Below are positions 1,877 to 21,719 of a DNA stretch of 24,000 bases, piece after piece. The stretch covers positions 656,660 through 680,659 of the forward strand of contig NZ_CP166625.1 of assembly GCF_041320595.1 (NCBI RefSeq). Reading direction: 5' to 3'. Position 1 is the first letter of the stretch. Each line of letters begins with the position of its first letter. Source of the DNA: Pleomorphomonas sp. PLEO (GTDB lineage: Bacteria > Pseudomonadota > Alphaproteobacteria > Rhizobiales > Pleomorphomonadaceae). The notes under the pieces are model-generated. The model saw only the letters and a program-made list of their open reading frames with translations, was not told where the DNA came from and did no database searches. The translations under genes were made by a program, and so were the position numbers.

Positions 1877-1941
1877 GGTCATGCCAGTCCTTCTTCAGAT
1901 GGTTTTTGGCCGCGCCGCACCTTTCGGGCGCGCGACTGTTT

Positions 1942-5817: not shown

Positions 5818-6306
5818 TCAGCGCTTGTCCCAGAACGACCGATGAAGTTGGGCTGCCTCATCTTCGAGCAGCGGACCGATCACTTCGACGGTCCGTTGGC
5901 CGCTTTCCAGCACTGTCCGGCACGGTAGGTCGAGTGTCGGATTTTCGGGATGATTACCGGTAATCTGTCCGAGCGTATTTTCGGAAAGCCCGTAGACGAT
6001 GCGGCCAATGCCTGCCCAATAGGCAGCCCCAGCGCACATGGCGCAAGGCTCAGCCGAGGAGTAGAGCGTGGCGCCCACAAGCTCGGCCGGACGGAAGCGT
6101 TGCGAGGCGCGCGTTGCCAATACCCGTTCGGCGTGACCCGTCATGTCGTGGTCCGGAAGGTAGGCATTGCCCTGTTCCATCAGCACGGCGCCGTCGCTGC
6201 CAACCAGGATGGCTCCAAACGGATGGCTGCCGTTGGCGACCGCCTCCGCCGCGACGGCAAAGGCCCGGCGGAGATAGGCAGCATGATCAAGGTTGGGAAG
6301 CGGCAT
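5818..6306 (-). CDS. Zinc-dependent nucleoside/nucleobase deaminase (cytidine/deoxycytidylate deaminase fold; guanine/cytosine-deaminase-like), 162 aa
   Basis: HAE (GHAERVL) and PCxxC (EPCAMCAGA) zinc-binding motifs at CDA-fold spacing. The ATG at 6306 is preferred over the TTG at 6321. Substrate cannot be assigned from sequence. Confidence 0.8.
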   Translation of the reverse strand: MPLPNLDHAAYLRRAFAVAAEAVANGSHPFGAILVGSDGAVLMEQGNAYLPDHDMTGHAERVLATRASQRFRPAELVGATLYSSAEPCAMCAGAAYWAGIGRIVYGLSENTLGQITGNHPENPTLDLPCRTVLESGQRTVEVIGPLLEDEAAQLHRSFWDKR

Positions 6307-6499
6307 GGCGGTCCGGAGCAAGCGATAGCATCACCGGTCATCTTAGCTGAGATTTCGCGCCGGCAAAGGCGCTCCATCTTGGCATGTGCCTATAGTGTCT
6401 ATTGTGACCGCCATATGGACGTTGCTCGGCGGGGCAATGCAAACTTCCTCAAAATAAAGGGAACAGGACTGTCTTTCCGCAAGCGAGAGGGGTTTTCAC

Positions 6500-7582
6500 A
6501 TGCAGCGCTTCACACTTAACCGCCGCCAGATGCTAGGGGGGCTCGCGGCCGGCGCAGGGCTTTCGCTTCTTGGCCCGATGGGTCGGGCTTCCGCCGCCGT
6601 GTCTGAGATCGTCTGGGCAACGTGGGATTCCAACGGCCATCCCGAATATGTCGCAGCCTTCGAGAAGGCGACGGGCACCAAGGTGAAGCTATCCTTCCTG
6701 TCGAGCGAGGATGCGCAGTTCGCCGCCCTCAAGACCGGCTCGGCGTCCGACTGGGATATCGTCAATCCCTCGCTGAACGGCGCTTGGCGCTACATCAAGG
6801 CCAAGGTGCTGAAGCCGCTCGATCTTTCCAAGGTTCCCAACCTTGCGCACATGTACGACGTGTTCAAAGCGACCGACAAGGTGAAGGGCGAAGATGGCGC
6901 CACCTATGCCATTCCCTATCTCTGGGGCCTCAATCCGATCGTCTACCGGTCGGACATTCACACCGAAGAGCCAACTTACTCGACGCTGTTCGATCCCAAG
7001 TTCAAGGGCCAGCTCGCCATGCGCGACTACGCCCTCGAATCGATCGCCATCGCCGCCTTGCACATCGGTATTCCGCGTGAGCGCGCCTTCCTGCTGACGT
7101 CGGACGACCTCGCCGAGGTCAAGAAGGCGCTGATCGCGCAGAAGCCATTGCTTCGGACCTACTGGCAAACCATCGGCGACCTCACCAATCTATTCGCCAC
7201 CGGCGAAGTGACGGCTGCCTTCTCCTGGCGCGTCCCCTACGACGCGCTGAAGGACAAGATGAAGGTGGCGATGGCCAAGCCGAAGGCCGGCATCATGGGC
7301 TGGTGCGACTGCTTCGGCATCCCGGCCAACCTGCCGGACGAGAAGCTGGAGATTGCCTACAAGTTCGCCGATTATCTGCTCGGCGCCGATTACGCCTCCA
7401 CCATTGCCGAGATCGGCAACTACGCCACCACGTCGTCGATCATCCGCGACAAGCTGAGCCACGAAAAGCAGGAAGCAATCTTCGTCGATGACCTCTCGGT
7501 CATGCAGAACTTCATGTGGCCGGTGGCGCCGGACAATTATTCGGAGTGGCTGAAGGTCTGGAACGAGGTCAAGGCTGCCTGA
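6500..7582 (+). CDS. ABC transporter periplasmic substrate-binding protein, PotD/PotF (polyamine-type) family, 360 aa
   Basis: Signal peptide with a twin-arginine-like NRRQMLGGLAAGAGLSLLGPMGRASA. Size, composition and operon context (PotA/B/C-like genes follow) fit the family. GAGAGGGG RBS upstream. Confidence 0.8.
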   Translation: MQRFTLNRRQMLGGLAAGAGLSLLGPMGRASAAVSEIVWATWDSNGHPEYVAAFEKATGTKVKLSFLSSEDAQFAALKTGSASDWDIVNPSLNGAWRYIKAKVLKPLDLSKVPNLAHMYDVFKATDKVKGEDGATYAIPYLWGLNPIVYRSDIHTEEPTYSTLFDPKFKGQLAMRDYALESIAIAALHIGIPRERAFLLTSDDLAEVKKALIAQKPLLRTYWQTIGDLTNLFATGEVTAAFSWRVPYDALKDKMKVAMAKPKAGIMGWCDCFGIPANLPDEKLEIAYKFADYLLGADYASTIAEIGNYATTSSIIRDKLSHEKQEAIFVDDLSVMQNFMWPVAPDNYSEWLKVWNEVKAA

Positions 7583-7590
7583 TCCGCTGT

Positions 7591-7633
7591 CCGCACCGCT
7601 CGATCGGAAACCGAACGGTGCGGGATTTGCTTG
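7591..7633 (+). terminator. Intercistronic hairpin after the binding-protein gene (possible partial terminator)
   Basis: CCGCACCG (7591-7598) / CGGTGCGG (7616-7623), an 8-bp stem with a 17-nt loop, followed by GATTTGCTTG. Confidence 0.3.
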
Positions 7634-7666
7634 TCGAGCGAGGTTGGGGGAGACCGCCCGAACTCG

Positions 7667-8776
7667 ATGACCGAGGCATTTACATTGGTGGAAAGCGGAA
7701 TGGACAAGCGGACGGAGCCGGCGGCCTCGCCGCTGCTTCTCGCCATGCGAGGTATCGTCAAGACATTTGGTCGCTCGACCGCGGTGGACGGCATTGACCT
7801 CGACGTACCCGAACGGGCATTCCTGACATTGCTCGGTCCGTCGGGGTGCGGCAAGACGACGGTTCTCCGAATGATTGCCGGTTTCGAGGCGCCGGATGCC
7901 GGTGAAATGCGTCTCGACAACACGCCGCTTGCCGACGTGCCACCCGAGCGGAGGCCCGTTAACACGGTCTTCCAATCCTATGCCCTCTTTCCTCATCTCA
8001 CCGTCAATGACAACGTCGCTTTCTCGTTGAAGCTTCGGGGTGGGGTTGCCGATATTGCCGCGCGCGTGCGGCGAGCGCTTGATGCCGTCCATATGGCCGA
8101 TTTTGGCGAGCGTTATCCGCATCAGCTTTCCGGTGGGCAGCAGCAACGCGTCGCGGTGGCGCGATCGATCATCGCCGAGCCGCGCCTTTTGCTGCTTGAT
8201 GAACCTCTGTCGGCCCTCGACCGCAAGATGCGTGGTCATCTCCAGATCGAGCTGAAGGCCCTGCAACGGCGTCTCGGCATCGCTTTCGTCTATGTGACGC
8301 ATGACCAGGAAGAAGCCTTCGCGCTATCCGACATCGTGGTGGTGATGAACAAGGGGCGCATCGCTCAGAAAGCCGACCCACAGACAATCTATAGTCGCCC
8401 AGCCGACAGCTTCGTGGCCGATTTCATTGGCAACTCGACCCTGGTCGAAGGGCGAGTCCTCGAGCGCCGTGGGGAGGTGGCGACGATTGAAACCGCGCTT
8501 GGCGCGATTACCGCGCCGGCTGCCGAGGGGCTCGCTGCCGGCGACCTAGCCATGCTGGTCATCCGTCCCGAGTTGTTGTCAACGCGCGGGGAAGGGGAGG
8601 CGACCTTTACTGGCGACGTCAGTAACTGCGTCTTCCAGGGCGAGCGGAGCATGATGCAGGCCGAAGTCGCCGGGATATCTCTGCGCTTTGCTGCCGAAAT
8701 ACCCTATTCCGTTGGCACGCCGGTTGCTCTCTGGCTTGATGCAGACCGCAGCTTCATCACGAGGATCGTCGCATGA
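7667..8776 (+). CDS. ABC transporter ATP-binding protein, PotA-like, 369 aa
   Basis: Walker A GPSGCGKTT, signature LSGGQQQRVA, Walker B LLLLDEPLSALD, and a C-terminal TOBE-like regulatory region. Start is uncertain: TTG 7631, ATG 7667 or ATG 7700. Confidence 0.88.
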   Translation: MTEAFTLVESGMDKRTEPAASPLLLAMRGIVKTFGRSTAVDGIDLDVPERAFLTLLGPSGCGKTTVLRMIAGFEAPDAGEMRLDNTPLADVPPERRPVNTVFQSYALFPHLTVNDNVAFSLKLRGGVADIAARVRRALDAVHMADFGERYPHQLSGGQQQRVAVARSIIAEPRLLLLDEPLSALDRKMRGHLQIELKALQRRLGIAFVYVTHDQEEAFALSDIVVVMNKGRIAQKADPQTIYSRPADSFVADFIGNSTLVEGRVLERRGEVATIETALGAITAPAAEGLAAGDLAMLVIRPELLSTRGEGEATFTGDVSNCVFQGERSMMQAEVAGISLRFAAEIPYSVGTPVALWLDADRSFITRIVA

Positions 8777-9633
8777 TTTTCCGCCAGCGCCATCTTGCGC
8801 TGCCGGTCGCGGCGGCGATCGTCGCGGGTTGTCTTGCACCACTCGCCGTCCTCGTTGCCTTCAGTTTCTATGAGGTGGAAGATTTCGACCTGGTTCCAGC
8901 CTTCTCGTTCAGGGCCTGGGGGGAACTTGCCTTTTCCTCGACCGATTGGTTCCTGATCGGCAAAGCCGTTCTGTCCGGGCTTTCAACCACCGTGTTCACG
9001 GCCCTTCTCGGCTATCCGGTGGCGCTGGCGCTGACGCGGCTTGCCGCGTCGGGGAAAGGGCTCGCCATCATTATGCTGCTAACGCCGCTTTATACCGGCG
9101 AGATCGTTCGCATCTATGCCTGGCGGATCGTTCTGGGTGGCGAGGGGCTGGTCAACACGCTGCTCCAGGGATTGGGAGTGATCGACCAGCCGTTGAAATT
9201 CCTGCTGTTTTCGCCCTTCACCATCGGTCTTGTCCTCACCTACAACAATCTGCCGTATATGGTGCTTGCCATCTGGGTGTCGGCCGAAATGGTGGATCGT
9301 CGGCTGATCGAGGCCGCGCGCGATCTCGGTGCCCGGCCGATCGACGCCTTCTTCCGCGTCATTTTCCCGCTGACCACGCCGGGTTTGGCTGCCGGCAGCC
9401 TCACCGTCTTTGCCTTGGCGGCCGGCGAGATGCTGACGCCGAGCCTTCTTGGCGGGACGTCGGGGTCCACCGCCATGGCGCTGGTCGACAATCTGTTCGG
9501 TACTGCGTTCGATTGGCCACTTGCTTCGGCATTGGCTCTGGCGCTGCTCGCAACCCTGTTCCTCGTCGCCTCGGCCATGGCGGGATTGCTGTTGCGCTTC
9601 AAGGGCGCGCGGGCCGTGATGGGGAGGGTATGA
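8773..9633 (+). CDS. ABC transporter permease, PotB-like, 286 aa
   Basis: Multi-TM protein with the EAA loop IEAARDLGARPIDAFFRVIFPLTTPGL. Its ATG overlaps the ATPase stop (ATGA at 8773-8776). Confidence 0.88.
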   Translation: MIFRQRHLALPVAAAIVAGCLAPLAVLVAFSFYEVEDFDLVPAFSFRAWGELAFSSTDWFLIGKAVLSGLSTTVFTALLGYPVALALTRLAASGKGLAIIMLLTPLYTGEIVRIYAWRIVLGGEGLVNTLLQGLGVIDQPLKFLLFSPFTIGLVLTYNNLPYMVLAIWVSAEMVDRRLIEAARDLGARPIDAFFRVIFPLTTPGLAAGSLTVFALAAGEMLTPSLLGGTSGSTAMALVDNLFGTAFDWPLASALALALLATLFLVASAMAGLLLRFKGARAVMGRV

Positions 9634-10418
9634 TGGGACGAGCCAGCCTTTCCGTACTGATCGTCGCGGCCGGATTTCTCTATCTGCCGCTCGTCGTGCT
9701 CGCGGTGTTTTCCTTCAACGATTCCGCATTGATGGCCTTTCCGCTGTCCGGCTTCACCTTCGAATGGTATCGCGAGCTGGCGCAGAACGAGAATTTCCTC
9801 AAGGGGTTCGTCACCTCGTTTCTGATTTCGCAGCCGGTCGGTATTCTCGCCATGCTGTTCGGCCTGATGGCCTCGCTCGCCCTGACGGCGCCGGGATTTC
9901 GCTGGCGCGGCCTTTTCGCCGTCCTGCTGCTGATCCCCTTCCTGGTGCCGAAGAGCGTTCTGTCGATCGCCCAGGCCATGATCATGAGCCGCGTCGGTTT
10001 CGAGCGTGGGGCCACAGCGTTGATCCTGGCGCAGTCGCTGGTCGCGCTGCCCTTCGCTACGGCGCTGATCTCGGCGGTGATGGTGCGTCTGGATCCCCGT
10101 CTCATAGAGGCGGCGCGCGATCTGGGCGCCACGCCCTGGCAAGCCTTCCTGCGGGTGCTGTTGCCGCAAATCAGGCCGGCGCTGTCGGGTGCCTATTCGG
10201 TTGGCGTGATCCTGTCGCTGGCCGATCTGACCATCGCCATGTTCCTCGCCGGCCGAACCCAGCCGCTATCGCTGATGGTCGCCTCGGAATTCCGGCGCGA
10301 ACTCAGGCCCGATCTCAACGCCATGCAGGTGGTGGTGCTCGTCCTGACGGCGCTGCTGGTTGGCCTGAGCGAGGCGTATCGCCGCCGCCGGTTACGCAGG
10401 CTCGCTGCAAGCGCTTGA
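9630..10418 (+). CDS. ABC transporter permease, PotC-like, 262 aa
   Basis: Begins MMGRASLSVLIVAAGFLYLPLVV. EAA loop IEAARDLGATPWQAFLRVLLPQIRPAL. Its ATG at 9630 overlaps the PotB-like stop (GTATGATG). The track's 490-aa ORF (8946..) is this gene plus a spurious upstream extension lying out of frame over the PotB-like gene. Confidence 0.85.
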   Translation: MMGRASLSVLIVAAGFLYLPLVVLAVFSFNDSALMAFPLSGFTFEWYRELAQNENFLKGFVTSFLISQPVGILAMLFGLMASLALTAPGFRWRGLFAVLLLIPFLVPKSVLSIAQAMIMSRVGFERGATALILAQSLVALPFATALISAVMVRLDPRLIEAARDLGATPWQAFLRVLLPQIRPALSGAYSVGVILSLADLTIAMFLAGRTQPLSLMVASEFRRELRPDLNAMQVVVLVLTALLVGLSEAYRRRRLRRLAASA

Positions 10419-10422: not shown

Positions 10423-11232
10423 TCAGCCGGAGAAGGCCGTTTTGGGGGTCAGCCGATCAAGGTCAAAGGCAGCAACGTCCCCCAACAGTGAAACGAAAGC
10501 CGACCCGGCGCGATCGACGATGATCCGTCCCTTTTCGGCAGTGGCGACCTTGGCATTGCCGGCAACGCCCTTGGGGTGAAGATCCTGCGCCTGCCAGCCG
10601 AAGCCGACGGCGCCCTCTGCGGTCAGCAGGCTGCCGGAAGCCTCGATCTCCACCGTCAGCGGAACGAAATCCTCGGCTTTGTCCATGGCAACGAGATCGC
10701 CGTGCAGATGCAGCATGACGCTGGTCTCGAGATCTCCGCCGTGAATGCCATGCGCCGATTCGGCGGCTGGAATGATGTCGTCGACTGTCGTGATGCGGAA
10801 CCACGAGCAGGCAACCGCCAGCATGCCGAGCTTCACCCGGATATCGCGGCAAACGATGTCGATCAGGGCGATCTGACCACCATGAGCATTGAAGAACACC
10901 AGCTTGCGGACGCCGGCGCGATGAACGCTTTCGGCGATTTCAAACCAGATGCGTGCCAGCGTTTCGCCCGTAACGGCAATCGTTCCGGGAAAAGCGATGT
11001 GCTCATCGGACTTGCCGTAGGGCAATGGAGGCAGCACCAGAACGTCGGTATCGGCGGCGAGTTTGGCGAGCGCATCGGCCAATACGCCGGCATTGATTGC
11101 CGCGTCGACACTGACCGGCAAGTGGGGGCCGTGTTGCTCGACCGCGCCGACGGGCAGCACCGCGACCGTCTTTGAAAGATCGCGGCCTGCGAAGTCGGCG
11201 GTCGAGAGATTCCACCAGGAAAAGGATGTCAT
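10423..11232 (-). CDS. Creatininase-family amidohydrolase (creatinine amidohydrolase / MftE / ArfB superfamily), 269 aa
   Basis: Family motifs VEQHGPHLP, GKSDEHIAFPGT, FFNAHGGQ, HGGDLETS. True start is MTSFSWWNL (ATG 11232), 8 nt after the ligase stop. The track's 365-aa ORF carries an Arg/Gly-rich spurious extension that overlaps the ligase gene. Confidence 0.85.
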   Translation of the reverse strand: MTSFSWWNLSTADFAGRDLSKTVAVLPVGAVEQHGPHLPVSVDAAINAGVLADALAKLAADTDVLVLPPLPYGKSDEHIAFPGTIAVTGETLARIWFEIAESVHRAGVRKLVFFNAHGGQIALIDIVCRDIRVKLGMLAVACSWFRITTVDDIIPAAESAHGIHGGDLETSVMLHLHGDLVAMDKAEDFVPLTVEIEASGSLLTAEGAVGFGWQAQDLHPKGVAGNAKVATAEKGRIIVDRAGSAFVSLLGDVAAFDLDRLTPKTAFSG

Positions 11233-11240
11233 GTCGTCGC

Positions 11241-12851
11241 TCACGCTGCGGCTTCGGCGGCGAGTGTCGCCTTGGCGATTTTGCCGGTTGGCGTCATGGG
11301 AAGGCTCGTCGCCTTGCGGATGATCAGCGGCGTCAAGTCGTAGGGTACGAGCGCTGCGATGGTCGCCTTGAGCGCGGCAAGATCGACCGTTTCCCCGTGG
11401 CGCTCTGTTATGTAGGCGATTGGGGTACTCCCACCAGCGGGATTGGGCACGCCGACCAGCGCGGCCAGCAGTACGCCCGGTTGAGCCGCGAGCGCCTCCT
11501 CGACGTCCCGAGGGAACCAATCTACGCCATCTACCGTGACGAGTTCGGCAACGCGGCCGCGCATGGTCACATAGCCATCGGCATCGATGCTGCCGAGATC
11601 GCCGGAATGCAGCCAGCCGCCCCGCGTTGCTTCAGCTGTTTTCTCTGGCCGGCCCCAGTAGCCGGCCATGAAGCCACCCCTCAGGCAGATCTCACCCACG
11701 GTTCCAATGGGAGCTCGGGTGCCGGAGGTGGTCAGGATCGCCACCTCCTTGTCCGGCGTGCCCGGCCCGACGCGAACCAGTTTGCCGTCATCCCGTTCGA
11801 GTTCGGGAAAGCCGAGGGCGAAGAAACCGCCGATTTCACTTTGGCCAAAACTTTCGACCAACGGCAGCTTCAACACGTCGCGGAAGGCCTTTCGCAAGGT
11901 AGGAGGTACCGGCCCTCCGCCTGAAAGCCCAAAGCGCAGCGGTGATGGCAGTCGGCCACGCGTCTGCGATTCCTCGAGAAGTTCGGTCAGCACAACCGGA
12001 TTGCCGACGAACACGGTGGCTCCGGTCCGTTCGAGCGCGTCCCAGCCGGTCGCCTGCGTCCACTTTCCCATGACATTGACGATGGCACCGGCCGCCATCG
12101 GTGGCAGCAGGTTGGCCACCAGCTGATAGGAGCTCGACAGGGCCGTCGGGCCGAAGGAGCGGTCGGCGGCGCGGATGCGCAGTCGTTCGCCAATGCAGCG
12201 GGCGGCAGTAACGGTCGGCTCGTGGGCGAGGCAGGCGCCTTTGGGTTTGCCCGTTGTGCCAGAAGTGTAGGAAAGATGGGCGATCGCCGTGGCGTCTTCA
12301 GGGTCGGTCGGTGGGGCAAAGTTGGCCGCCATCAGTTCCGGCAGCGCGTGGGCGCCGTCCTGTGGACCGTCCATGCAGATGAGATGAGAGACGCAACCTA
12401 TCGCCGCGGCGGCAGCCTTCACCGGTCCTTCCATGTCGTGGGTATAGATGATCGCCTTGGGACGGTGATCGCCGACGTAATAGGCGAGATCGTCGGCGTA
12501 TTTCACGTTCACCAAGGCCGAGATGGCGCCGAGTCGCCAAATCCCGAGCATGGCCAGGAGATAATCCATGCCGTTATGGGCGAAGATCAGCACCCGGTCA
12601 CCGGGCGAGATGCCGAGGTGAGCCAAGGCACCGGCCATTCTCTCCATGCCGCCTACCGCTTGTTCGGCGGTGAGCGCCAGGTTGCGATCCACCCAGTTGA
12701 GGGCAGGAGCGTCCGGGACGCGCTCGGCGGCGCGATAGAGCAGGTGGTGCATCAGCATGGGGTGGCGGCTTCCTTGGCGAGCGGCGTCATATGCACCGAA
12801 CATGGGCACGCCGGCGGGCGAAGGAAATTCAATGCCCGACATAGACTTCAT
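11241..12851 (-). CDS. AMP-dependent synthetase/ligase (acyl-CoA synthetase-like adenylate-forming enzyme), about 536 aa
   Basis: Adenylation motifs LSYTSGTTGKPKG, GWLHSGDLGSIDADGYVTMRGR and PTGKIAK. Start is uncertain. ATG 12851 is the longest start that clears the upstream gene. ATG 12758 has an AAGGAAG motif 11 nt upstream. The track start at 13079 overlaps the activase gene and is rejected. Confidence 0.85.
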   Translation of the reverse strand: MKSMSGIEFPSPAGVPMFGAYDAARQGSRHPMLMHHLLYRAAERVPDAPALNWVDRNLALTAEQAVGGMERMAGALAHLGISPGDRVLIFAHNGMDYLLAMLGIWRLGAISALVNVKYADDLAYYVGDHRPKAIIYTHDMEGPVKAAAAAIGCVSHLICMDGPQDGAHALPELMAANFAPPTDPEDATAIAHLSYTSGTTGKPKGACLAHEPTVTAARCIGERLRIRAADRSFGPTALSSSYQLVANLLPPMAAGAIVNVMGKWTQATGWDALERTGATVFVGNPVVLTELLEESQTRGRLPSPLRFGLSGGGPVPPTLRKAFRDVLKLPLVESFGQSEIGGFFALGFPELERDDGKLVRVGPGTPDKEVAILTTSGTRAPIGTVGEICLRGGFMAGYWGRPEKTAEATRGGWLHSGDLGSIDADGYVTMRGRVAELVTVDGVDWFPRDVEEALAAQPGVLLAALVGVPNPAGGSTPIAYITERHGETVDLAALKATIAALVPYDLTPLIIRKATSLPMTPTGKIAKATLAAEAAA

Positions 12852-12904: not shown

Positions 12905-13774
12905 TCAGGGTAACCAGACCGACGGCACCGCTACCTCGGCAACGCCGTTGGCCCTTAGAGTGGCGGCCGCAGCTTCGACGCCAGCGCGCGGCATGGGCAG
13001 CCAACTGGCGGCTGGTCCGCGCACCCCGTGGTGTTGGAAGGCGTTGAGGCGGAGGCGCGTCTGCGAACCGAGTGCGCATGCCAGAGTGGCGAGGGCTGCG
13101 ATTTCCTCAGGATGGTCGGTCTCGCCGGGAATCAGCAGGAAGCGCAATTCGTAGAGCTTGCCGGCGTCGGCCAGCAGTCTGGCCGAGGCGAGCGACAGAT
13201 CGTTGTCGGTGCCGGTGAGGCGGCGGTGGCGCTCGGTGTCGAAAGCCTTGATGTCGAGCATGACGCCATCGGTCAGCGGCAGTACCTTTTGCCAGCCTTC
13301 GGCCGGCAGATGGCCGTTGCTGTCGATGAACAGCGTCAGATGGGCGAGGTCCGGCGCCGCCTTGACGGCCGTGAACAGGTCGATCAGGAAGTCGAGCTGC
13401 AACGTCGCCTCACCGCCTGACACGGTGAGGCCGTTGAGGAAGGGGGCATTGCGGCGGAGAAGGCCAAGTACGTCCTCCACCGTCATGCGCTTTACCATCG
13501 GGTTGGCGCGTGTCGGGCAAGCCGCAAGGCAGCTATCGCAGGCAATGCAGACAGCGGGGTCGTGGGCAACCTTGCGACCGGTTCGGTTCAGCGCGCCCGA
13601 CGGGCAAACGGCAACGCAGGCGCCGCAGTCGCAGCAGACGCCGATGGTGTGCGGGTTGTGACAGGTGATGCAACGATAGTTGCAGCCCTGCAGGAACAGG
13701 ACGAAGCGATTTCCCGGCCCGTCGACTACCGACCAGGTCAGGAATTTGCTGACGGCGGCGACGCCGTTAGACAC
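12905..13774 (-). CDS. Glycyl-radical enzyme activating protein (radical SAM), YjjW-like, 289 aa
   Basis: N-terminal GRE-activase signature VVDGPGNRFVLFLQGCNYRCITCHNP (CX3CX2C). Two ferredoxin-type CX2CX2CX3CP motifs (CCDCGACVAVCP, CIACDSCLAACP). SAM-binding-like TVSGGEATL. The GTG start overlaps the upstream GRE stop by 8 nt (GTGTCTAA). Confidence 0.88.
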   Translation of the reverse strand: MSNGVAAVSKFLTWSVVDGPGNRFVLFLQGCNYRCITCHNPHTIGVCCDCGACVAVCPSGALNRTGRKVAHDPAVCIACDSCLAACPTRANPMVKRMTVEDVLGLLRRNAPFLNGLTVSGGEATLQLDFLIDLFTAVKAAPDLAHLTLFIDSNGHLPAEGWQKVLPLTDGVMLDIKAFDTERHRRLTGTDNDLSLASARLLADAGKLYELRFLLIPGETDHPEEIAALATLACALGSQTRLRLNAFQHHGVRGPAASWLPMPRAGVEAAAATLRANGVAEVAVPSVWLP

Positions 13775-15305
13775 CCGAACCTGCCATCAGCTCCAGCCCG
13801 ACAACCCGAGGCTTACGGGCGAGAATATGCACCGTTTCAGCCGCCTCAGCCCCAAGCGCTGTCGTATTGACGCGCGATCCTTTCGCCGCGTTGTAAAGCT
13901 TGACGTCGGAGAGGCGAATCATGAAGCCGGTGACGCGCACCAGATCGTTGCCGGCGACATTGGCGGTGAACTCACGGAAGCCGAGTTGCAGGGCACCCTT
14001 GGCAAGCTGGAACACCGCTTCGGGGTTGGCTCGCACCGTTTCGTCGAGGGTCAGGATCTCCGATACGCCTGAAAGATAGTGCTGGTGGTGCGGCAAGAGC
14101 GCCTGCACGTGGCTGACCGGGTCGGGCTCGCTGCCATAGGGAATGCGCACGCCGGGGGTGGTGCCGGCGTCGCTGGAGAGGCCGGCCTGGGCGTGCAGCA
14201 TGGCAACCCCGCGCCAGACGTGCTCCATCGGTTCGCGGGCGACAAGCTCGGCGAGACGGGCCGAAATGCGGTGGCCAAGGGCGTTGGCCGCGGCATCATG
14301 GCCGTAGCGGCCAGGCCGTCCGGCGATATCCTGCAACTGATTGACCGCCTCGGCCATGGCGAAGATGCCGAACATCGCCGTGAAGCGGTCCTTGTCGATC
14401 CAGCCTTCCTCGACGAGGAAGTTGCCGTCGAAGAAGCCCGACTGGCGGAACAGATAGTCGATGCGGGCGCGCATCAGGCGGGCGTTGAGATTGACGTAGC
14501 GCGGCAGCTGGACATCGAGAAATTCGGCCTCGCTGGCGCTTGCCTCGGCCACCTTCTTGAGATTGATCCGGGCAAGCGACGCGGCGCCGCCCCTGAGAGG
14601 CAGGGCGTTGTAGCAGCTGACGATGGCGTAGCCCGGCTCGTCGAACACTTCGCGGTGGATCGGGTGGTTGGCGATGTGGGGCTTGGAGCAGGCGATGATG
14701 TTGTCGGTGCAAAGCCGCAGCATGGCTTCGCCGCTGACTTCGGGGTCGTAGAGAAAGGTGAGGTTGGGCGCTACCTGCTTCAGCTCGGCGTCGACACGGA
14801 GAATGGCGCGGGCGACGCGGTTGTCGGTGGGGCCGATGTTGGCGTGCAGGAAGGCGTCCGGCAGCACACGGTCGATGTAGCGCCAGAACAGCTTGATCTT
14901 GCGATAGAGGTCGTCGTCGGAAACGCCGTCGCAGAAGGGCAGGAGCAGCGCGTCAAGATGGCCGATAAACACCGGCATGCCGGTTACGGAGGGTACGTGA
15001 TGGTAGGCGATCTGCAATGTGCTGATTGCTTCGTCAAGCGTTTCCGGCTTCGGCAGCTCCAGATGTTCGGAGCCGTTCCGTAGTACCACCTCGTAGTCGG
15101 GCAGCACGTAGCGCGGCTTGTAGGGCGCGTGTCCCTCGTACATGTCGCAGATGATGCGGGCATCAAGCGCGGCGCGCGTCTCGGTGTCGAGCAGCACGTA
15201 GGGCAGCATATTCTCGGCTTCGATCGCCAGCGCATGTGCCTTCTGCTTGAAGCTCAGGGTTGGGTTCTGCGCGATCCTGCGCAGCTGGCTCAGCGTTTCG
15301 GTCAT
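13767..15305 (-). CDS. Short glycyl radical enzyme, YjjI-family-like, 512 aa
   Basis: C-terminal glycine-radical loop NDLVRVTGFMIRLSD matches the RVxG[FYW] GRE fingerprint and lies 52 aa from the C-terminus. The ~510 aa size matches E. coli YjjI, not the 750-850 aa of classical GREs. It is translationally coupled to a GRE activase. Start placed at MTETLSQLRR (ATG 15305; GAGGAA RBS 6 nt upstream) rather than the track's 15344. Confidence 0.75.
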   Translation of the reverse strand: MTETLSQLRRIAQNPTLSFKQKAHALAIEAENMLPYVLLDTETRAALDARIICDMYEGHAPYKPRYVLPDYEVVLRNGSEHLELPKPETLDEAISTLQIAYHHVPSVTGMPVFIGHLDALLLPFCDGVSDDDLYRKIKLFWRYIDRVLPDAFLHANIGPTDNRVARAILRVDAELKQVAPNLTFLYDPEVSGEAMLRLCTDNIIACSKPHIANHPIHREVFDEPGYAIVSCYNALPLRGGAASLARINLKKVAEASASEAEFLDVQLPRYVNLNARLMRARIDYLFRQSGFFDGNFLVEEGWIDKDRFTAMFGIFAMAEAVNQLQDIAGRPGRYGHDAAANALGHRISARLAELVAREPMEHVWRGVAMLHAQAGLSSDAGTTPGVRIPYGSEPDPVSHVQALLPHHQHYLSGVSEILTLDETVRANPEAVFQLAKGALQLGFREFTANVAGNDLVRVTGFMIRLSDVKLYNAAKGSRVNTTALGAEAAETVHILARKPRVVGLELMAGSGV

Positions 15306-15458
15306 GGCGGTTCCTCGTTGTCGGGCACGTGCGTCGTGTTCCATGATACGCCGCTGACGGCGGCGCAGCCATGGTTTGGCGGCATCAAGCGAGATAAAGA
15401 GCGTCTTGTCCAGACGGAGGGTTACCGATCAGCGGCTCCGATGTGCCATTTTCGCGAC

Positions 15459-16346
15459 TCACCCGTTCCCCTCGTCGGGAATTGCCAGGAGGTGACCGCA
15501 GGCCTTGCAATGGACGGCGTCCGGTTCGTGCCGCATGAGCGCGCATTTCGGACAGCGGAACGCGACCTTGTAAGGGCGAAATAGCGCCTGCGCCAAACGC
15601 ACGAACAAAGAGATGCCAACGATCATGGTGACGATGGACGTCAGCTTGCCGATCGTTCCGGGAAGGGTAATGTCGCCGAAGCCGGTGGTGGTAACGGTGG
15701 CGACGGTGAAATAAAGCGCGTCTATCCAGCCCTCCATGCCCGAACCGGGCCGTGCGAAGGCGGTGTAGACGAAGCCCGTTATGACGAAGAGACAGGTGAT
15801 GAGATTGATCGCCGCCCGCCCAACGTCTTCCCACTCCCAGTAGCCTCGCCGACGCAGCGAGCGCCAGAAGACGTCTTTCTGTGACAAGGTCCAAAGGCGA
15901 AGGATACGCAGGAAACCGAGGTTGGCAACCCAGAGGGGGGCCAGCAGCGTTGCCAGCACGATGAAATCCACCCAGACGGATGGTCGTCGCAACCACCGCC
16001 GAAGGCTGATGGCAGCCACAGCCCTTGCCGCCAGGTCGCTGGCGAGCAGGCAAGCCACGGCATAGTCGAACCACAGGAAGGCCCGCCACTCCTGCAGGAC
16101 CGGGCTCAAGATGAAGAAGGCGATGATGATCAGGTCGACTGTGGCAAACGCCCACTGAAAGCGCACCGCCTTGGGATCCGTTCCAACATAGAGCTGGCGC
16201 AGGCGTCGCCGCCAATGTGCCCGGTGAGGCACCTGTTCCGGCGCCACCGCGTGCCGGTGCTGGAATTCGAGAAGCGTCTCGACACTAGGGCCGTCCGACG
16301 TCCGCGCCCCTGGAGTGTCTGACGTGACGGGTGGCTTGGTCGTCAC
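15459..16346 (-). CDS. 6TM voltage-gated-type K+ channel with C-terminal zinc-ribbon, 295 aa
   Basis: Pore helix and selectivity filter WIDALYFTVATVTTTGFGD. Four hydrophobic segments precede the pore module, including an S4-like GFLRILRLWTL...RSLRRR. C-terminal CPKC-x11-CKAC. The GTG start at 16346 is uncertain (AAGGA lies 11 nt upstream). Confidence 0.8.
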   Translation of the reverse strand: MTTKPPVTSDTPGARTSDGPSVETLLEFQHRHAVAPEQVPHRAHWRRRLRQLYVGTDPKAVRFQWAFATVDLIIIAFFILSPVLQEWRAFLWFDYAVACLLASDLAARAVAAISLRRWLRRPSVWVDFIVLATLLAPLWVANLGFLRILRLWTLSQKDVFWRSLRRRGYWEWEDVGRAAINLITCLFVITGFVYTAFARPGSGMEGWIDALYFTVATVTTTGFGDITLPGTIGKLTSIVTMIVGISLFVRLAQALFRPYKVAFRCPKCALMRHEPDAVHCKACGHLLAIPDEGNG

Positions 16347-16499
16347 AATGGATCATATCCTTACGAATGACCGCCTTGGATGGGGAGGATGGCAGTAGAC
16401 GGAGGCCGGTCCGCTCCGCCTCCGAATGTGGCAGTTTCCCGGCAATCCAACCAGCAACCATCGGCTAAGCGATGGGTTCCGCGTCTATCGGCACACCTT

Positions 16500-16825
16500 C
16501 TAAACAGCCGTCGACGGCAGGCGTTATTCTCTGCGCTTTTCAGGCGCGCTCCTGAAACTTGTAACCGGCGCGCTCGCGTGCATGCGAACATGGCTGTGCG
16601 ACTTGAGGTTCGCGGACGTGTCGTCGCGGACCACAAAGGCGGACACCGCCTCAGGCGACCCCGCCCATCCCCTGAGTTGGCTTGCCAACGCGCTCGCTTC
16701 CGCTTCGGGCGGGGGAGGTGGTGACCACCGGAGCCTTCGGCGGCGGCCACGCCATTGTGTCGGGCGAGATGGCGGTCGCAATCGTCGAGGGCTTTGACCC
16801 CATTCGCTTTACACTCAAGGCCTGA
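16500..16825 (+). pseudogene. Frameshifted, 5'-truncated remnant of a 2-keto-4-pentenoate hydratase / MhpD-XylJ-type (FAH-fold) gene
   Basis: Read by hand across three frames. Frame 0 gives MAVRLEVRGRVVADHKGG. Frame 1 gives DTASGDPAHPLSWLANALA. Frame 2 gives LPLRAGEVVTTGAFGGGHAIVSGEMAVAIVEGFDPIRFTLKA*, with the stop at 16823-16825. The pattern G.P...WLAN.L...L.AG.VV.TG....V..G.......G...RF recalls the C-termini of this hydratase/decarboxylase family. At least two frameshifts (about 16640 and 16690) are needed, and no intact N-terminal ~180 aa is present. The left boundary is approximate. Confidence 0.4.
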
Positions 16826-16982
16826 TCGAGCGGTGGCCCTCGATAAAGGTAAAGGAGAACCTAACGCTGCTTTTAGATTTTCTTTGGTCGGCCTTCAGCG
16901 AATACGACTTTCGTATATGTGATCGAAAGCCTATATCAGCGGCGTCGAACAAGGTCGTTCGGCACATGGAAAGGAAACCGAG

Positions 16983-17126
16983 ATGTTCGCCCAGGCTCCC
17001 CTCAACAGGACGTTCCGCGAATCCCGCGCCGTCGAGCGGGGCACCAGCTATGTGCGCGGCTTCGGTTCGGAATTCCGTGAGCGTCAGTATGTCCGCGCTG
17101 GCGGCAGCCGGATCTCCGGTCTCTGA
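16983..17126 (+). CDS. Candidate small basic protein, 47 aa (hypothetical)
   Basis: Too short for the track. Sequence ATG...TGA encodes MFAQAPLNRTFRESRAVERGTSYVRGFGSEFRERQYVRAGGSRISGL. GGAAAGGAAA RBS ends 6 nt upstream. Third-position GC is about 79% (37 of 47 codons, hand count), against about 64% for the overlapping 104-aa antisense ORF. A plus-strand intrinsic terminator follows 36 nt downstream. Confidence 0.4.
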   Translation: MFAQAPLNRTFRESRAVERGTSYVRGFGSEFRERQYVRAGGSRISGL

Positions 17127-17161
17127 CATAGGTGGCTGCTAGCCGAGTTGTTCAGGTCGAG

Positions 17162-17197
17162 CGCCCGATCCGCAAGGATGTCGGGCGTTTTGCTTTT
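17162..17197 (+). terminator. Rho-independent terminator (plus strand)
   Basis: CGCCCGA (17162-17168) / TCGGGCG (17181-17187) stem, followed immediately by TTTTGCTTTT. The U-tract is correct only for the plus strand. Confidence 0.6.
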
Positions 17198-17248
17198 AAA
17201 AAACGCAACAGCAGAGTTGGTCCGCTCCGCACGGGGCGACAAGCCGTC

Positions 17249-18208
17249 TTATTTGCCTGCAGCTTCGGTCTTGCGGCGAGGACGATTAGCGGCCGGCCGT
17301 TGTGCCGGACGGTCTCGCCCGCCCACGACGGTGTGACCGATAAAGTCGCCGTAAAGCGCCGATACCGCATTGAGGCGCGCCTCCACCTCCGGTCCCAGCT
17401 CGGCAAATACCGCGTTGACGATCAGGCCGATCAGGCTTGCCATCGCCGACGTTGCATCCCAAAACTGATCGAAATCGGTGCTGACGGCGAACACCTCGTC
17501 GGCTGCTTCGCTGCCCCAGGTGCAATAGGGATCGGTGATCAGCGTCACGTGCGTACCCGCGTTGCGGGCGGCAATGCCGAGATGGCGGGCGAGGCGCGAA
17601 TAACGGCGACCGTCGATGATCACCAGAGCCGTCTCCGAAGGCGTACCGAGCAAAAGTTCGGCAAAGGTTCCGTCGGCGGCGTCCATCAGATGCACGTTCG
17701 GCCGGAGGTAGGAAAGACCGTGGGCGAGATACTGGGCGTGGCCGCGCTCGGTCTGAAAGCCGGCAACGAAGACCTTATCGGCGCGGGCGAGCCGCGCCGC
17801 CACGGCGCGGAAGGCAGGTTTCGCGGCCAGCTCATGGTTGGCCACAATGGCCGCGATTTCCTTTTCGAGGGCTCGGCTGTCTCCAGTCCGGTTGCGTTCG
17901 GCGAAATCGCGCAATCGGTCGCCAATCAGAAAGGCGCGATCGCCGAGGTCACTCCTGAGCGATGTTTTAAGATCCTTGAAATGGCGGAAGCCGATAGCGC
18001 GACAATAGCGGCCGACAGAGGCTTCGGACACGCCAATCCGGCGGGCAACCGAGCCGGCGGTTTCGAAGGGCAGGCTGGAAAGATCGCTCAAAAAGAAGCC
18101 TGCGATGGCTGCTTCCGTCCGTGTGGCGGCGGCAAGGCTTTCCTCGATGCGGCGCCTAAGGTCGGCGCCTGATCCCGCCGTTTCCTTTGTGCCACGCCGT
18201 TCCTTCAC
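17249..18208 (-). CDS. MurR/RpiR-family transcriptional regulator (HTH_6 + SIS domain), 319 aa
   Basis: RpiR-type HTH AAIAGFFLSDLSSLPFETAGSVARRIGVSEASVGRYCRAIGFRHFKDLK. SIS-like core ADKVFVAGFQTERGHAQYL...ALVIIDGRRYS. Start placed at GTG 18208 (GGGAG RBS 6 nt upstream). The 69-aa extension in the track ORF looks non-coding. Confidence 0.82.
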   Translation of the reverse strand: MKERRGTKETAGSGADLRRRIEESLAAATRTEAAIAGFFLSDLSSLPFETAGSVARRIGVSEASVGRYCRAIGFRHFKDLKTSLRSDLGDRAFLIGDRLRDFAERNRTGDSRALEKEIAAIVANHELAAKPAFRAVAARLARADKVFVAGFQTERGHAQYLAHGLSYLRPNVHLMDAADGTFAELLLGTPSETALVIIDGRRYSRLARHLGIAARNAGTHVTLITDPYCTWGSEAADEVFAVSTDFDQFWDATSAMASLIGLIVNAVFAELGPEVEARLNAVSALYGDFIGHTVVGGRDRPAQRPAANRPRRKTEAAGK

Positions 18209-18323
18209 CCTAAGCTCCCACCTGAATTCGCGGGAACGCTGACAGGGAAATTGCCGGCTGTCAATCTTGCAAAGAAACTTGCAGCAGCCTACCGTTCCCG
18301 GGCTTTTCCCGGAGGTTCCGCCG

Positions 18324-19442
18324 ATGACCCGTTCCCTTCCGCCAATCGAGCGTGCCGAGTTGAGGCTCGTCCGGCTGCCCTTGGTCAACCCCTTCACCAT
18401 CTCCACCGGCACCATGACCGAACGTGTCTTTCCGCTGGTGACGCTTTCTGCCGGCGGTTTGGAAGGCTACGCCGAGGGGGTGATGGATCCGCTACCCGAC
18501 TTTCTCGAGGAGACGATCGCCGGTGCCATGGATCTGATCGGCGAGACCATTCTGCCGTCGATGATGGGGCAATCGTTCGATAACCCGGCCGCTGTCGAAA
18601 GGTTACTCTCTCCATGGCGCGGCAACCGGATGGCGCTCGCCACCGTCGAGATGGCGTTTTGGGATCTGTGGGCCAAATGGCTCGACCTGCCACTCAAGAC
18701 GTTGATCGGTGGTTCGGGCGAGGCGGTTGACGTCGGCGTATCGCTCGGTATCGGTCCGATCGACGGTACGCTGTCGCTGGTGGAGAGCCATGTGGCGCAG
18801 GGCTACAAGCGCATCAAGCTTAAGATCATGCCGGGCCATGACGTCGAACTGTTGGAAGCGGTGCGCCGGGCCTTCCCCAACATCAAGCTGTCGGTCGACG
18901 CCAACAGTGCCTACCGCCTGTCCGATTGGGCGGTGCTCGGCCAGCTCGATAATTTCCACCTTGAATATGTCGAGCAACCGCTGGCCCACGACGACATCGC
19001 CGACCATGCGGTGCTGCAGAGCCGGCTCAAGACGCCCATTTGCCTCGACGAAAGCATCCGCAGTGCTGGTCACGCCCGGCGGGCGCTCCAGGCCGATGCA
19101 ACGCGCGTGATTAACATCAAGGTCGGCCGTGTCGGTGGGCTTGCCGAGGCGATCCGCATCCACGACATCGCCGCCGCCTTCGACGTTCCCGTCTGGTGCG
19201 GCGGCATGCTGGAATCGGGCATCGGCCGCGCTCACAACATCCATCTGTCGACGCTTCCCAACTTCCGTAAGCCCGGCGATACTTCGTCGGCGAGCCGTTA
19301 TTTCCACCGCGACATCATCGTCGAGAAATTGGAGACCGTTGACGGTCGCATGCCTGTACCGGAGGGGCCGGGCATCGGTGTTCACCTTGATCGCGATGCG
19401 CTCGACAACGTCACCCGGTCGGTTCGGGGCTTTTCCGCATGA
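18324..19442 (+). CDS. Enolase-superfamily enzyme of the o-succinylbenzoate synthase / N-succinylamino-acid racemase (OSBS/NSAR) subgroup, 372 aa
   Basis: Muconate-lactonizing-enzyme-subgroup catalytic set: KxK (KRIKLKI), metal ligands in [14 protein letters not shown] and CLDESI, and the second base in [12 protein letters not shown] at 18324 with a GGAGG RBS 8 nt upstream. Confidence 0.82.
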
Positions 19443-20179
19443 GCTCCATAGATACTCAGCCTGTTATCCGCGATCTTTCGGGCATGGTCGAGTTCCACGC
19501 CGCCGAGGATCTTCAACGCGACGTGTGGGGTCCGGACGACAAGACCGATCCTGGCGATCTGATGATGGTCATTCAGGCCGAGGGGGGACTAGCCGCCGGC
19601 GCCTTTGTTAAGGACCGCCTGATCGGCTACGTCTTCGCCTTCCCAACGGCAACGCCCGGCGTGCAGCATTCGCATCGTCTCGCCGTGCGCGCCGAAGCGC
19701 GTGGCTTGGGGCTCGGCCTGAAGTTGAAGCTCTATCAGGCCGACTGGTGCCTCCAGCGAGGCATACGGCACGTGCGTTGGACCTACGATCCGCTGCGCCT
19801 TCCCAACGCCGCCCTCAACATCGGTCGTCTTGGCGCGACATCAAGCACCTATCACCGCGACTATTACGGGAAAATGGGCGGCATCAACGCAGGTACCGCA
19901 TCCGACCGCTTGCTCGTCGATTGGAGACTGGACGGCGATCGCTACGCCCGATGCCGGGCAGGGGAGGCCGCGCTGACGGCCAGCCAGGTCGCAACTGCCC
20001 GCCGGATCGCCCTACCTTCAGATTTCGCCGGATTGCTTAGAGCCGATCCGGCTGCGGCGAGCGCTGAGCGCCTTAGGGTCCGTGAGGAGATCGAGGCCTC
20101 TCTTGCTGCCGGGTTCGTCATCGCCGGTGTCGATGCCAGGGAACCGGCCTATCTTCTGCAACGTTTACCAATCGAATAG
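19439..20179 (+). CDS. GNAT-fold acyltransferase-like protein (uncharacterised family often found beside NSAR/OSBS genes), 246 aa
   Basis: R-x-x-G-x-G acyl-CoA-binding motif ([11 protein letters not shown]) and a conserved-looking TYDPL...NA.LN..LGA block. The start overlaps the NSAR stop (ATGA at 19439-19442). Confidence 0.6.
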
Positions 20180-20312: not shown

Positions 20313-21719
20313 ATGTCCGTCAGCTTTGGAACGTCGGGTCTTCGTGGCCCGGCTATTGATTTCACAGGCCCTACCACGGCCGCTTATGTACGAGCCTTTC
20401 TGGAAGTAATTTGTTCCGGCGTTTCGTCGCGGACTGTCTACCTTGGTGCCGATCTCAGGGCGTCCAGTCCAGAGATTGCCGGCTATGCCGCGGCCGCCAT
20501 TTCCGCTGCCGGTTGGACGCCTGTTTATGCCGGCAACGTGCCGACCCCGGCGCTGGCTGTATATGCGTTGGCCCGTCAGTCGCCGGCCGTCATGGTGACC
20601 GGTAGCCACATTCCCGAAGACTATAACGGCATCAAATTCTATCGCCCCGATGGCGAATTCCTGAAGGAAGATGAGGCGCCTGTGCGCGACCGCGCCGAAG
20701 CTCTGATTGCCGAGACTCTTTCCGCTGGCGGCGGTAACCTGCCACCTGTTGATCCGGCCATCGCCGAAGCCTATGTCGCCCGCTATACCGACGCCTTCGC
20801 TGGTCGGCCACTTAAGGGGCTACGGGTCGGGCTCGACCTGCATTCGGCTGTGGGCCGTGATCTCACGGGCCGCATTCTCGAGGGCCTGGGCGCCGAGGTG
20901 TTTCCGTTCCGCCGTTCTGACCGCTTCATCGCAGTGGATACCGAAGCACTTGATCCGGAAGATCTTTCCCGCGCCAAGGGCGAGATTGCCGCTCACCGGC
21001 TGGATTCCGTGGTCTCAACCGACGGCGACGGCGACCGTCCCCTGGTGATTGACGAGGCCGGTCGCCAGGTAAATGGCGATGTGCTCGGCATCCTTACGGC
21101 TCGTCGGCTCGGTGCCAAGACCGTGGTGACGCCGATCTCTTCGACATCGGCTATCGAGATGACCGGCTGGTTCGAGACTGTCGTCCGTACCCGCATCGGT
21201 TCCCCTTACGTCGTTGCCGGTATGGCGGCTGCCAAAACGGCACCCGTCGTTGGCTTCGAGGCCAACGGTGGGTTCCTGACCGAAAGTGACATCGCGCTTT
21301 CCGGTGGCTCGCTCGCGCGTCTGCCTACTCGCGATGCCATCTTGCCGATGGTCGCCGCCCTTGTTGCCGCCGCCGAGGCGAAGAGGCCTTTGTCAGCGTT
21401 GGTCGCAGACTTGCCGCCGCGTGTCATGAAGGCCGATCGTCTCAAGAAGATCGCCCCCGCCGATGGGGCAAAGCTGCTGCTTGCCATCGACGGCTCGCGT
21501 GAGGCGCGCGTTGCACTCGATCCGCGTCTCGCAGCGCCGGTGGCCGTCGACCACACCGACGGGCTTCGCCTGGTATTGTCGAACGGTGAGATCGTCCACT
21601 TCCGGCAGTCCGGTAACGCGCCGGAGCTCCGCTGCTATGTCGAGACGGACAGCGCAGCCGCGACCGACGCGTTGCTCGCCGACATGCTGGCCGCCCTCAA
21701 CCGCCATTTCGCCGCCTGA
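20313..21719 (+). CDS. alpha-D-phosphohexomutase family protein (phosphomannomutase/phosphoglucomutase, NoeK-like), 468 aa
   Basis: N-terminal FGTSGLRG. Phosphoserine loop MVTGSHIPEDYNGIKF. Metal loop STDGDGDRPLVID. Sugar loop FEANGGF. Phosphate loop RQSGNAPELRCYVE. Confidence 0.85.
   Translation: MSVSFGTSGLRGPAIDFTGPTTAAYVRAFLEVICSGVSSRTVYLGADLRASSPEIAGYAAAAISAAGWTPVYAGNVPTPALAVYALARQSPAVMVTGSHIPEDYNGIKFYRPDGEFLKEDEAPVRDRAEALIAETLSAGGGNLPPVDPAIAEAYVARYTDAFAGRPLKGLRVGLDLHSAVGRDLTGRILEGLGAEVFPFRRSDRFIAVDTEALDPEDLSRAKGEIAAHRLDSVVSTDGDGDRPLVIDEAGRQVNGDVLGILTARRLGAKTVVTPISSTSAIEMTGWFETVVRTRIGSPYVVAGMAAAKTAPVVGFEANGGFLTESDIALSGGSLARLPTRDAILPMVAALVAAAEAKRPLSALVADLPPRVMKADRLKKIAPADGAKLLLAIDGSREARVALDPRLAAPVAVDHTDGLRLVLSNGEIVHFRQSGNAPELRCYVETDSAAATDALLADMLAALNRHFAA

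Follow-up and report, generated by a model that had tools for sequence, protein, structure and literature searches.

Escherichia coli carries the genes yjjI (b4380) and yjjW (b4379), of which yjjI is listed among the operons that FNR binds directly, with a '+' in the columns for both FNR and anaerobic expression (PMC3688515), and co-clusters with narG (PMC3228777). In Yersinia intermedia, anaerobic conditions raise yjjI 4.3-fold and yjjW 2.1-fold (PMC3792023). Here we analyze the corresponding gene pair in a 24,000-nucleotide stretch of the chromosome of Pleomorphomonas sp. PLEO (Alphaproteobacteria, Hyphomicrobiales, Pleomorphomonadaceae), hereafter the window, to which all coordinates refer. 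A preliminary description of this DNA had recognized a glycyl radical enzyme and its activase (YjjI/YjjW) at 12905-15305 in a host of the Rhizobiales type and had considered the enzyme out of place there. Profile and exact RefSeq matches bear out the identification of the pair, and the host is indeed of that type, the Rhizobiales being now the Hyphomicrobiales; the supposed oddity of the combination is another matter. We estimate at roughly 0.88 the probability that the locus is a standard yjjI-yjjW module in gene identity, in its vertical inheritance within Pleomorphomonadaceae and in a generic radical mechanism, with no particular substrate implied. The two genes are:

12905-13774, minus strand: yjjW, radical S-adenosylmethionine (SAM) activase of a glycyl radical enzyme, 289 aa, GTG start (TIGR04041; exact match to WP_370676322.1).
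13767-15305, minus strand: yjjI, glycyl radical enzyme, 512 aa (TIGR04040, PF11230; exact match to WP_370676323.1).

Both products are already known, RefSeq naming them "YjjI family glycine radical enzyme" and "YjjW family glycine radical enzyme activase", respectively. The start of yjjI is the ATG at 15305, which corresponds to M14 of a longer open reading frame (ORF; 13767-15344) and yields a 512-aa product identical to the RefSeq entry; the coordinates show an 8-nt overlap between the end of yjjI and yjjW. YjjI aligns with positions 2-497 of the 497 in the TIGR04040 hidden Markov model (HMM) at 678.1 bits (cutoff 498.3) and with all 485 positions of PF11230 at 653.7 bits (cutoff 23), and YjjW matches TIGR04041 at 344.3 bits (cutoff 250.2) as well as PF04055, PF13353 and PF12838; these scores lie far above chance. 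Long ORFs antisense to yjjI and yjjW (for example, 14079-15083 and 13158-13661, both on the plus strand) were rejected as artefacts of high GC content, given that the RefSeq boundaries and the phase of GC content at third codon positions (GC3) favour the minus-strand genes, and on the same grounds so was a 5′ extension of the downstream ligase ORF into yjjW (to 13079). The window YjjI is thus an ordinary, previously annotated member of its family.

The motifs quoted in the preliminary description are all present in the two proteins. The glycine loop of YjjI, NDLVRVTGFMIRLSD, spans residues 453-467 and places G460 in the context NDLVRVTG460F, that is, within VRVTGF. G460 is the predicted radical site, and C231, at the tip of the S230-C231-Y-N233 hairpin, is the predicted thiyl site. 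In an alignment of 82 YjjI sequences, both residues are invariant (82 of 82), so that the conservation of the glycine loop, on which the preliminary description had made its case depend, is borne out; the same two residues are retained in a broader, family-wide set of 17 representatives down to 30% identity. Family-wide invariance at this depth extends to S230, N233 and R457 and also to E57, R65, Y66, H154, R246, E300, H371, Q373, D379 and R387. The protein contains five cysteines in total, none of them in C-terminal CX2C pairs, and one of these, C53, is invariant in proteobacterial sequences only and not across the family. Position 461 is occupied by Phe, as opposed to the Tyr that follows the radical glycine in the other sequences shown, and this replacement was seen only in the Pleomorphomonadaceae clade, where all members but the metagenome-assembled genome (MAG) L007 have it.

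In numbers, the preliminary description was right to put the enzyme 250-350 aa below classical glycyl radical enzymes in length, but this does not set the protein apart, the whole YjjI family being short. Among 1.84 billion representatives clustered at 50% identity, 487 match YjjI at E≤0.001, about 25 of them at full length, and none of the matches listed exceeds 532 aa; since E. coli YjjI, too, has 516 aa, short length is the norm of the family. YjjI forms a compact and very strongly conserved family.

YjjW displays the motifs expected of an activase: DGPGNRF, QGCNYRCITCHNP and a CX3CX2C motif (QGC31NYRC35ITC38HNP; C31, C35, C38), followed by two ferredoxin-like CX2CX2CX3CP motifs (C46-C49-C52-C56P and C76-C79-C82-C86P). 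C31, C35 and C38 together with VDGPG are invariant in the YjjW alignment. Among solved structures, PflA (3c8f, E 1.3e-22) is the nearest in sequence, and the best activase models other than those of YjjW itself are PflA and PFLE_PFLC (TIGR02494, 141 bits). At two loci of Desulfobulbaceae MAG origin, YjjW has only 245 aa (L084, 9508-10245; L085, 2554-3291) and is devoid of the 43-residue insert that bears both CX2CX2CX3CP motifs; because of this, the auxiliary clusters are not universal in the YjjW family.

The association of the two genes was assessed in 81 loci, compared by tblastn and ORF clustering. YjjW lies beside YjjI in 80 of the 81 and is the only widely conserved neighbour, no other family being found in more than 11 loci. 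YjjI is consistently the far more conserved of the two, with 95% against 86% identity within Pleomorphomonas, about 72% against about 57% across Alphaproteobacteria and 57% against 49% in the comparison with E. coli.

An AlphaFold2 model of YjjI, built from a 57-sequence alignment, has a mean predicted local distance difference test (pLDDT) score of 83.7 and a predicted TM-score of 0.84. It contains two beta-hairpins, one formed by residues 226-229 and 233-236 and tipped by C231, the other formed by residues 455-458 and 461-464 and tipped by G460. A Foldseek search of the model against the PDB gave 175 matches at E≤0.001, of which the 50 listed are all glycyl radical enzymes, either NrdD or PFL-like. 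The top 28 are without exception NrdD (1h78, E 3.5e-16, TM-score 0.65; 8p2s; 9d3x), with E values up to about 1e-11 and TM-scores of 0.60-0.71, and a second tier, at E 1e-11 to 1e-9, comprises PFL2, PflD, HypD, CutC, glycerol dehydratase and alkylsuccinate synthase. By sequence, the affinity is not detectable: phmmer matched no solved structure in the PDB, and no NrdD, ATP-cone, PFL-like or Gly_radical model in Pfam or NCBIfam was matched, PF11230 being the only Pfam hit. Assignment to NrdD by sequence was accordingly rejected (hhalign against E. coli NrdD gives a probability of 1.1%, the NrdD HMMs are unmatched and the C-terminal Zn-Cys4 site is absent), and so was membership in the Pfam PFL-like and Gly_radical families, whose models are unmatched and whose proteins have about 750-850 aa against 512 aa. 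The hallmark of the glycyl radical superfamily, a ten-stranded alpha/beta barrel in which Gly and Cys finger loops face each other, is supported by the predicted structure. The predicted fold and the two loops place YjjI in this superfamily, nearest to NrdD in shape and yet distinct from it.

The mechanism that can be proposed is modelled on that of other glycyl radical enzymes. Under anoxic or microoxic conditions, the [4Fe-4S] cluster held by the CX3CX2C motif of YjjW would cleave SAM reductively to generate a 5′-deoxyadenosyl radical, and the electrons for this step may be routed to the SAM cluster through the two ferredoxin-like clusters. The 5′-deoxyadenosyl radical would then take a hydrogen from Gly460 of YjjI to leave a stable glycyl radical. 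During turnover, this radical would pass to Cys231, which sits at the end of the beta-hairpin opposite, and the thiyl radical thus formed would attack the substrate.

The enzyme is widespread, YjjI being encoded in at least 576 species-representative genomes. The 80 closest loci, that is, the best 80 of at least 576 genomes, represent a ranking biased toward relatives of the query and are distributed as follows:

Pleomorphomonadaceae, 8 of 80.
Other Hyphomicrobiales (Roseibium, Pseudovibrio, Devosia, Hoeflea, a Rhizobiaceae MAG and others), 21 of 80.
Rhodobacterales, 27 of 80.
Unclassified Alphaproteobacteria, 6 of 80.
Gammaproteobacteria, 16 of 80.
Betaproteobacteria, 1 of 80.
Unclassified Pseudomonadota, 1 of 80.

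Alphaproteobacteria thus account for 62 of these loci, 29 of which belong to Hyphomicrobiales. Even allowing for the bias of the ranking, this shows that YjjI is common in Hyphomicrobiales, contrary to the premise that glycyl radical enzymes are uncommon in Rhizobiales.

The window YjjI shares its 90%-identity cluster with proteins of P. diazotrophica, Pleomorphomonas sp. NRK KF1, sp. T1.2MG-36 and an uncultured Pleomorphomonas, with the same contigs recurring in the searches with flanking genes; the YjjI proteins of P. carboxyditropha and sp. JP5 are 94% and 93% identical to that of the window, respectively. Six core Pleomorphomonas loci share one syntenic block, which takes in the deaminase and ABC importer genes, those of the hydrolase and ligase, the yjjW-yjjI pair and, on contigs long enough to show it, the RpiR gene; the potassium channel gene was detected in five of the six. 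Identities among these loci are 84-97% for the flanking proteins, 92-95% for YjjI and 82-86% for YjjW. The gene context of yjjIW differs in Oryzibacter oryziterrae, another member of Pleomorphomonadaceae, and in a divergent Pleomorphomonas MAG. In a neighbour-joining tree of the 82 sequences, computed without bootstrap support, the Pleomorphomonadaceae YjjI, Oryzibacter included, form one group; the deeper branches interleave orders and classes, with Woeseiaceae and one Rhodoferax among the Alphaproteobacteria. The composition of the genes is ordinary, with GC3 of 0.82 for yjjI, 0.80 for yjjW and 0.81 for the ribosomal protein gene rplU, the other correctly framed genes of the window covering 0.68-0.89. 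Carriage on plasmids is negligible (16 matches in 72,556 plasmid records, many of those listed being chromosome-sized). The synteny, the grouping in the tree, the shared Phe461, the ordinary GC3 and the negligible plasmid carriage together argue for inheritance within Pleomorphomonadaceae rather than recent acquisition, and a recent horizontal acquisition, for which the preliminary description had suggested a test, is not supported.

With regard to physiology, the formal description of Pleomorphomonadaceae calls the family "generally aerobic and mostly diazotrophic" (PMC7179689), and to this extent the notion of an aerobic host is correct. However, members of the genus have been documented in anoxic settings. 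Pleomorphomonas sp. T1.2MG-36 comes from a set of deep-subsurface isolates obtained under strict anaerobic conditions, and it has full denitrification along with nif genes and several hydrogenases (PMC13286885); P. oryzae has an [FeFe]-hydrogenase and all of its maturases (PMC4967309); and an isolate of Pleomorphomonas, grown in anaerobic fermentation of CO/syngas, turns CO into H2 and CO2 (PMC5603099). Pleomorphomonas inhabits soil and sediment and is known to be capable of life in the absence of oxygen, and because the genus has been repeatedly documented under anoxia, the presence of an oxygen-sensitive enzyme in it is unremarkable. At the level of genus and family, the host essentially corresponds to the facultative anaerobe that would undo the anomaly, one that has YjjI/YjjW among its core genes and passes the pair on vertically; the host anomaly is for this reason not real. 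By analogy with E. coli yjjI, anaerobic or nitrate-dependent, denitrifying growth would be the most likely setting for YjjI.

The remaining features of the window are the following:

345-1043, minus strand: GNAT acetyltransferase.
1173-1448, minus strand: rpmA (L27).
1562-1882, minus strand: rplU (L21).
2189-2278, plus strand: tRNA-Ser(CGA), between rplU and the GGDEF-EAL gene, the sole Rfam/ARAGORN match in the window.
2414-4375, minus strand: GGDEF-EAL protein.
4662-5645, plus strand: LysR regulator.
5818-6321, minus strand: deaminase of the cytidine/guanine type.
6500-10418, plus strand: PotD-type ABC importer.
10423-11232, minus strand: creatininase-family hydrolase, 269 aa (PF02633, 237 bits; exact match to WP_370678182.1).
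11241-12758, minus strand: class I adenylate-forming (acyl-CoA ligase-like) enzyme, 505 aa (PF00501, PF13193; exact match to WP_370676321.1).
15306-15458, minus strand: intergenic region from the stop codon of the potassium channel gene to the ATG of yjjI, the presumed location of the yjjIW promoter.
15459-16247, minus strand: potassium channel family protein, 262 aa (PF07885; exact match to WP_370678183.1), directly upstream of yjjI.
Within the ORF 17249-18415, minus strand: RpiR regulator.
18267-19442, plus strand: enolase-superfamily protein.
19439-20179, plus strand: GNAT acetyltransferase.
20313-21719, plus strand: phosphomannomutase.
21728-23158, plus strand: ManC.
23253-23933, minus strand: epimerase.

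Exact matches in the protein collection were obtained for nine of 10 window proteins, all under accessions of Pleomorphomonas sp. PLEO. The stretch of about 1 kb between the potassium channel and RpiR genes (16248-17250) contains ORFs at 16361-16750 and 16815-17129 on the minus strand and at 16380-16724 on the plus strand, none with a Pfam or NCBIfam match; for the ORF at 16815-17129, tblastn gave matches at 64-84% identity in three loci of Pleomorphomonas, although its exact sequence is absent from the protein collection. The RIME-like repeats mentioned in the preliminary description were not recovered: a repeat search of the window returned only short pairs at chance level and one paralogous stretch common to two permease genes.

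Upstream of yjjI, the intergenic region 15306-15458 includes a weak terminator-like hairpin (15416-15402) that follows the potassium channel gene. Several blocks on the minus strand (15402-15416 and 15330-15400) are kept among Pleomorphomonas species, namely GATCGGTAACCCTCCGGCTGGACAAG, TTTATCTCGCTTGATG, CATGG and GCGGCGTATCATGG, the first of which overlaps this hairpin. Standard sigma-70 spacing was not recognized upstream of yjjI, and the FNR/FixK-type sequence TTGA-N6-TCAA is absent from the window.

The gene neighbourhoods across the 81 loci offer no consistent clue to the substrate of YjjI. Recurring neighbours (AraC; NnrS/UbiD/UbiU; MtnA in Woeseiaceae) were rejected as a general functional link, each being confined to certain clades. 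A divergently transcribed AraC-family regulator precedes yjjI by about 110-210 bp in 11 loci of Alphaproteobacteria as well as in Paludibacterium and Hoeflea prorocentri (loci L011-L014, L017, L023, L025, L030, L033, L043, L059, L083 and L086; not in Pleomorphomonas), which suggests induction of yjjI by a small molecule in those hosts. In a Rhodobacterales clade (L020, L021, L027, L028, L037, L075), yjjIW is found less than about 8 kb from nnrS (PF05940, 212 bits), ubiD and ubiU (oxygen-independent ubiquinone biosynthesis; NF047963, 514 bits against a cutoff of 440), the exact gene set varying by locus; in that clade only, this context fits an anaerobic or denitrifying theme. In the window, the ligase gene begins 146 bp downstream of yjjW and the hydrolase gene 8 bp downstream of the ligase, and the two adjoin yjjIW only in the core Pleomorphomonas loci (L002-L006, L009); the adenylate-forming enzyme is probably not part of the YjjI system. 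The ligase and hydrolase genes (10423-12758, minus strand), together with those of the PotD-type importer, the deaminase and the LysR regulator that they face (5818-10418), make up a genus-specific cluster, which could constitute a catabolic unit for a nitrogen-containing compound.

Several alternatives to a standard, vertically inherited module have to be weighed. The possibility that YjjI is a minimal reductase resembling class III ribonucleotide reductases, which would carry out NrdD-type radical elimination and reduction on a nucleotide-like or phosphorylated small molecule, draws on the uniform NrdD identity of the 28 best structural matches and a size near that of NrdD cores, on the invariant R65, R246, R387, H154, H371 and E300, which could bind an anionic substrate, and on an earlier structure-prediction note that pointed to an NrdD-like domain (PMC3228777). 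The fold match, however, comes from a predicted model whose identity to the targets is about 12-14%, the profile and hhalign comparisons as well as the sequence search of solved structures gave nothing in its favour, the five cysteines do not include a C-terminal Cys4 zinc site, and the candidate second cysteine, C53, is invariant in the proteobacterial subgroup only, so that we regard this proposal as unlikely. It is also doubtful, and if anything slightly more so, that yjjIW, the ligase, the creatininase-family hydrolase and the divergent PotD-type importer form one operon or pathway in Pleomorphomonas. The genes in question share a strand, no terminator-like site was found within the gap between yjjW and the ligase, and the arrangement is kept in the six core loci; that relatives so close (83-97% protein identity) keep it says little about function, however, the 146-bp gap stands against the 8-nt overlap of yjjI and yjjW and the 8-bp spacing of ligase and hydrolase, and none of the 74 other loci, including Oryzibacter and the divergent Pleomorphomonas MAG, has these genes beside yjjIW.

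That an essentially aerobic host of the rhizobial type recently acquired an anaerobe's enzyme by horizontal transfer, an enzyme that would be out of place in it, is quite improbable. The published characterization of the family as "generally aerobic" (PMC7179689) would agree with it, as would the different yjjIW neighbours in Oryzibacter and the divergent MAG, the mixture of Hyphomicrobiales, Rhodobacterales, Gammaproteobacteria and one betaproteobacterium in the deep branches and the place of the betaproteobacterium Paludibacterium (75% identity) as the closest named relative from beyond the family in the first protein search. Yet the six core loci are syntenic with flanking genes that have diverged to a similar degree, the Pleomorphomonadaceae group together and share Phe461 in all but MAG L007, the GC content and GC3 are typical of the window, there is no association with plasmids, and members of the genus possess [FeFe]-hydrogenase, denitrification and anaerobic CO oxidation. 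That yjjIW is a decaying or non-functional remnant is the least credible proposal, hardly worth entertaining: the sole point in its favour is that no function has been assigned to the pair and no expression data exist for the host, whereas both ORFs are intact and of full length relative to the models, every family-invariant residue is kept, and YjjI is 92-96% identical across core Pleomorphomonas, as much as or more than most flanking proteins.

The standard yjjI-yjjW module is thus the reading we prefer, and the following observations weigh against it. The glycine loop is the least confident part of the structural model, with pLDDT below 50 for residues 457-461. In the literature searched, we found no biochemical report of a glycyl radical in any YjjI and no paper that assigns the family a function or reaction. 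The mixed deep branches of the tree, computed as it was without bootstrap, make older horizontal transfers of YjjI likely. With up to two mismatches allowed, a TTGAT-N4-ATCAA box is absent upstream of the window yjjI, and it occurs in 10 of 81 yjjI upstream regions, taken from the window and 80 loci, against about 7% of shuffles, which is no enrichment; because FNR-type boxes are neither present in the window nor enriched, anaerobic regulation in Pleomorphomonas is something we can only infer.

The window itself adds little, its genes being correctly predicted and named in RefSeq and the genus being known to live anaerobically, and it holds no decisive clue. The interest lies at the level of the family: YjjI is highly conserved and present in E. 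coli, and no reaction is assigned to it in the literature searched. Possible aids to the assignment of a function are its frequency in denitrifying marine and soil Alphaproteobacteria, the invariant S-C-x-N and R-x-x-G core and the predicted NrdD-like shape. A speculative and rather doubtful extension would make YjjI an NrdD-shaped, tightly conserved radical enzyme tied to nitrate, nitric oxide or denitrifying anaerobic respiration; hints in this direction are the 56% identity between the E. coli and Pleomorphomonas proteins, the mere 25 or so full-length clusters, the co-clustering with narG, the binding of FNR and the Rhodobacterales nnrS/ubiD/ubiU context. If this were true, the spread of YjjI in denitrifying and diazotrophic Alphaproteobacteria would mark an uncharted step of anaerobic metabolism.

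Comparison with the known systems puts the locus closest to that of E. coli. E. coli YjjI aligns with the window protein over its full length at 56% identity, the two having in common the glycine loop NDLVRVTG[YF]M and the invariant SCYN Cys loop and differing in the Phe that replaces Tyr after the radical glycine in the window sequence. E. coli YjjW is 49% identical to its Pleomorphomonas counterpart, both with CX3CX2C and two ferredoxin-like motifs; gene order and overlap are the same in the two species, whereas the flanking genes differ, and E. coli yjjI is an FNR target, whereas the window gene has no FNR-type box upstream. NrdD (1h78 of T4 and 8p2s of Prevotella copri), to which the YjjI model is structurally closest (E about 1e-16, TM-score 0.62-0.71), is similar to YjjI in size and likewise combines a C-terminal glycine hairpin with a central Cys hairpin, but YjjI has no detectable sequence homology to it and lacks both an ATP cone and a zinc-binding cluster of cysteines at the C terminus, and it is paired with a long activase of the PflC/CutD-like type, which carries ferredoxin inserts and is not NrdG-like. 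With PflB, PflD, CutC, HypD and glycerol dehydratase, YjjI shares the superfamily fold, the RVxG[YF] glycine loop and a homologous radical-SAM activase, although it is about 250-330 aa shorter than these PFL-like enzymes, the aligned part covering about 40-46% of the targets (TMt 0.38-0.46).

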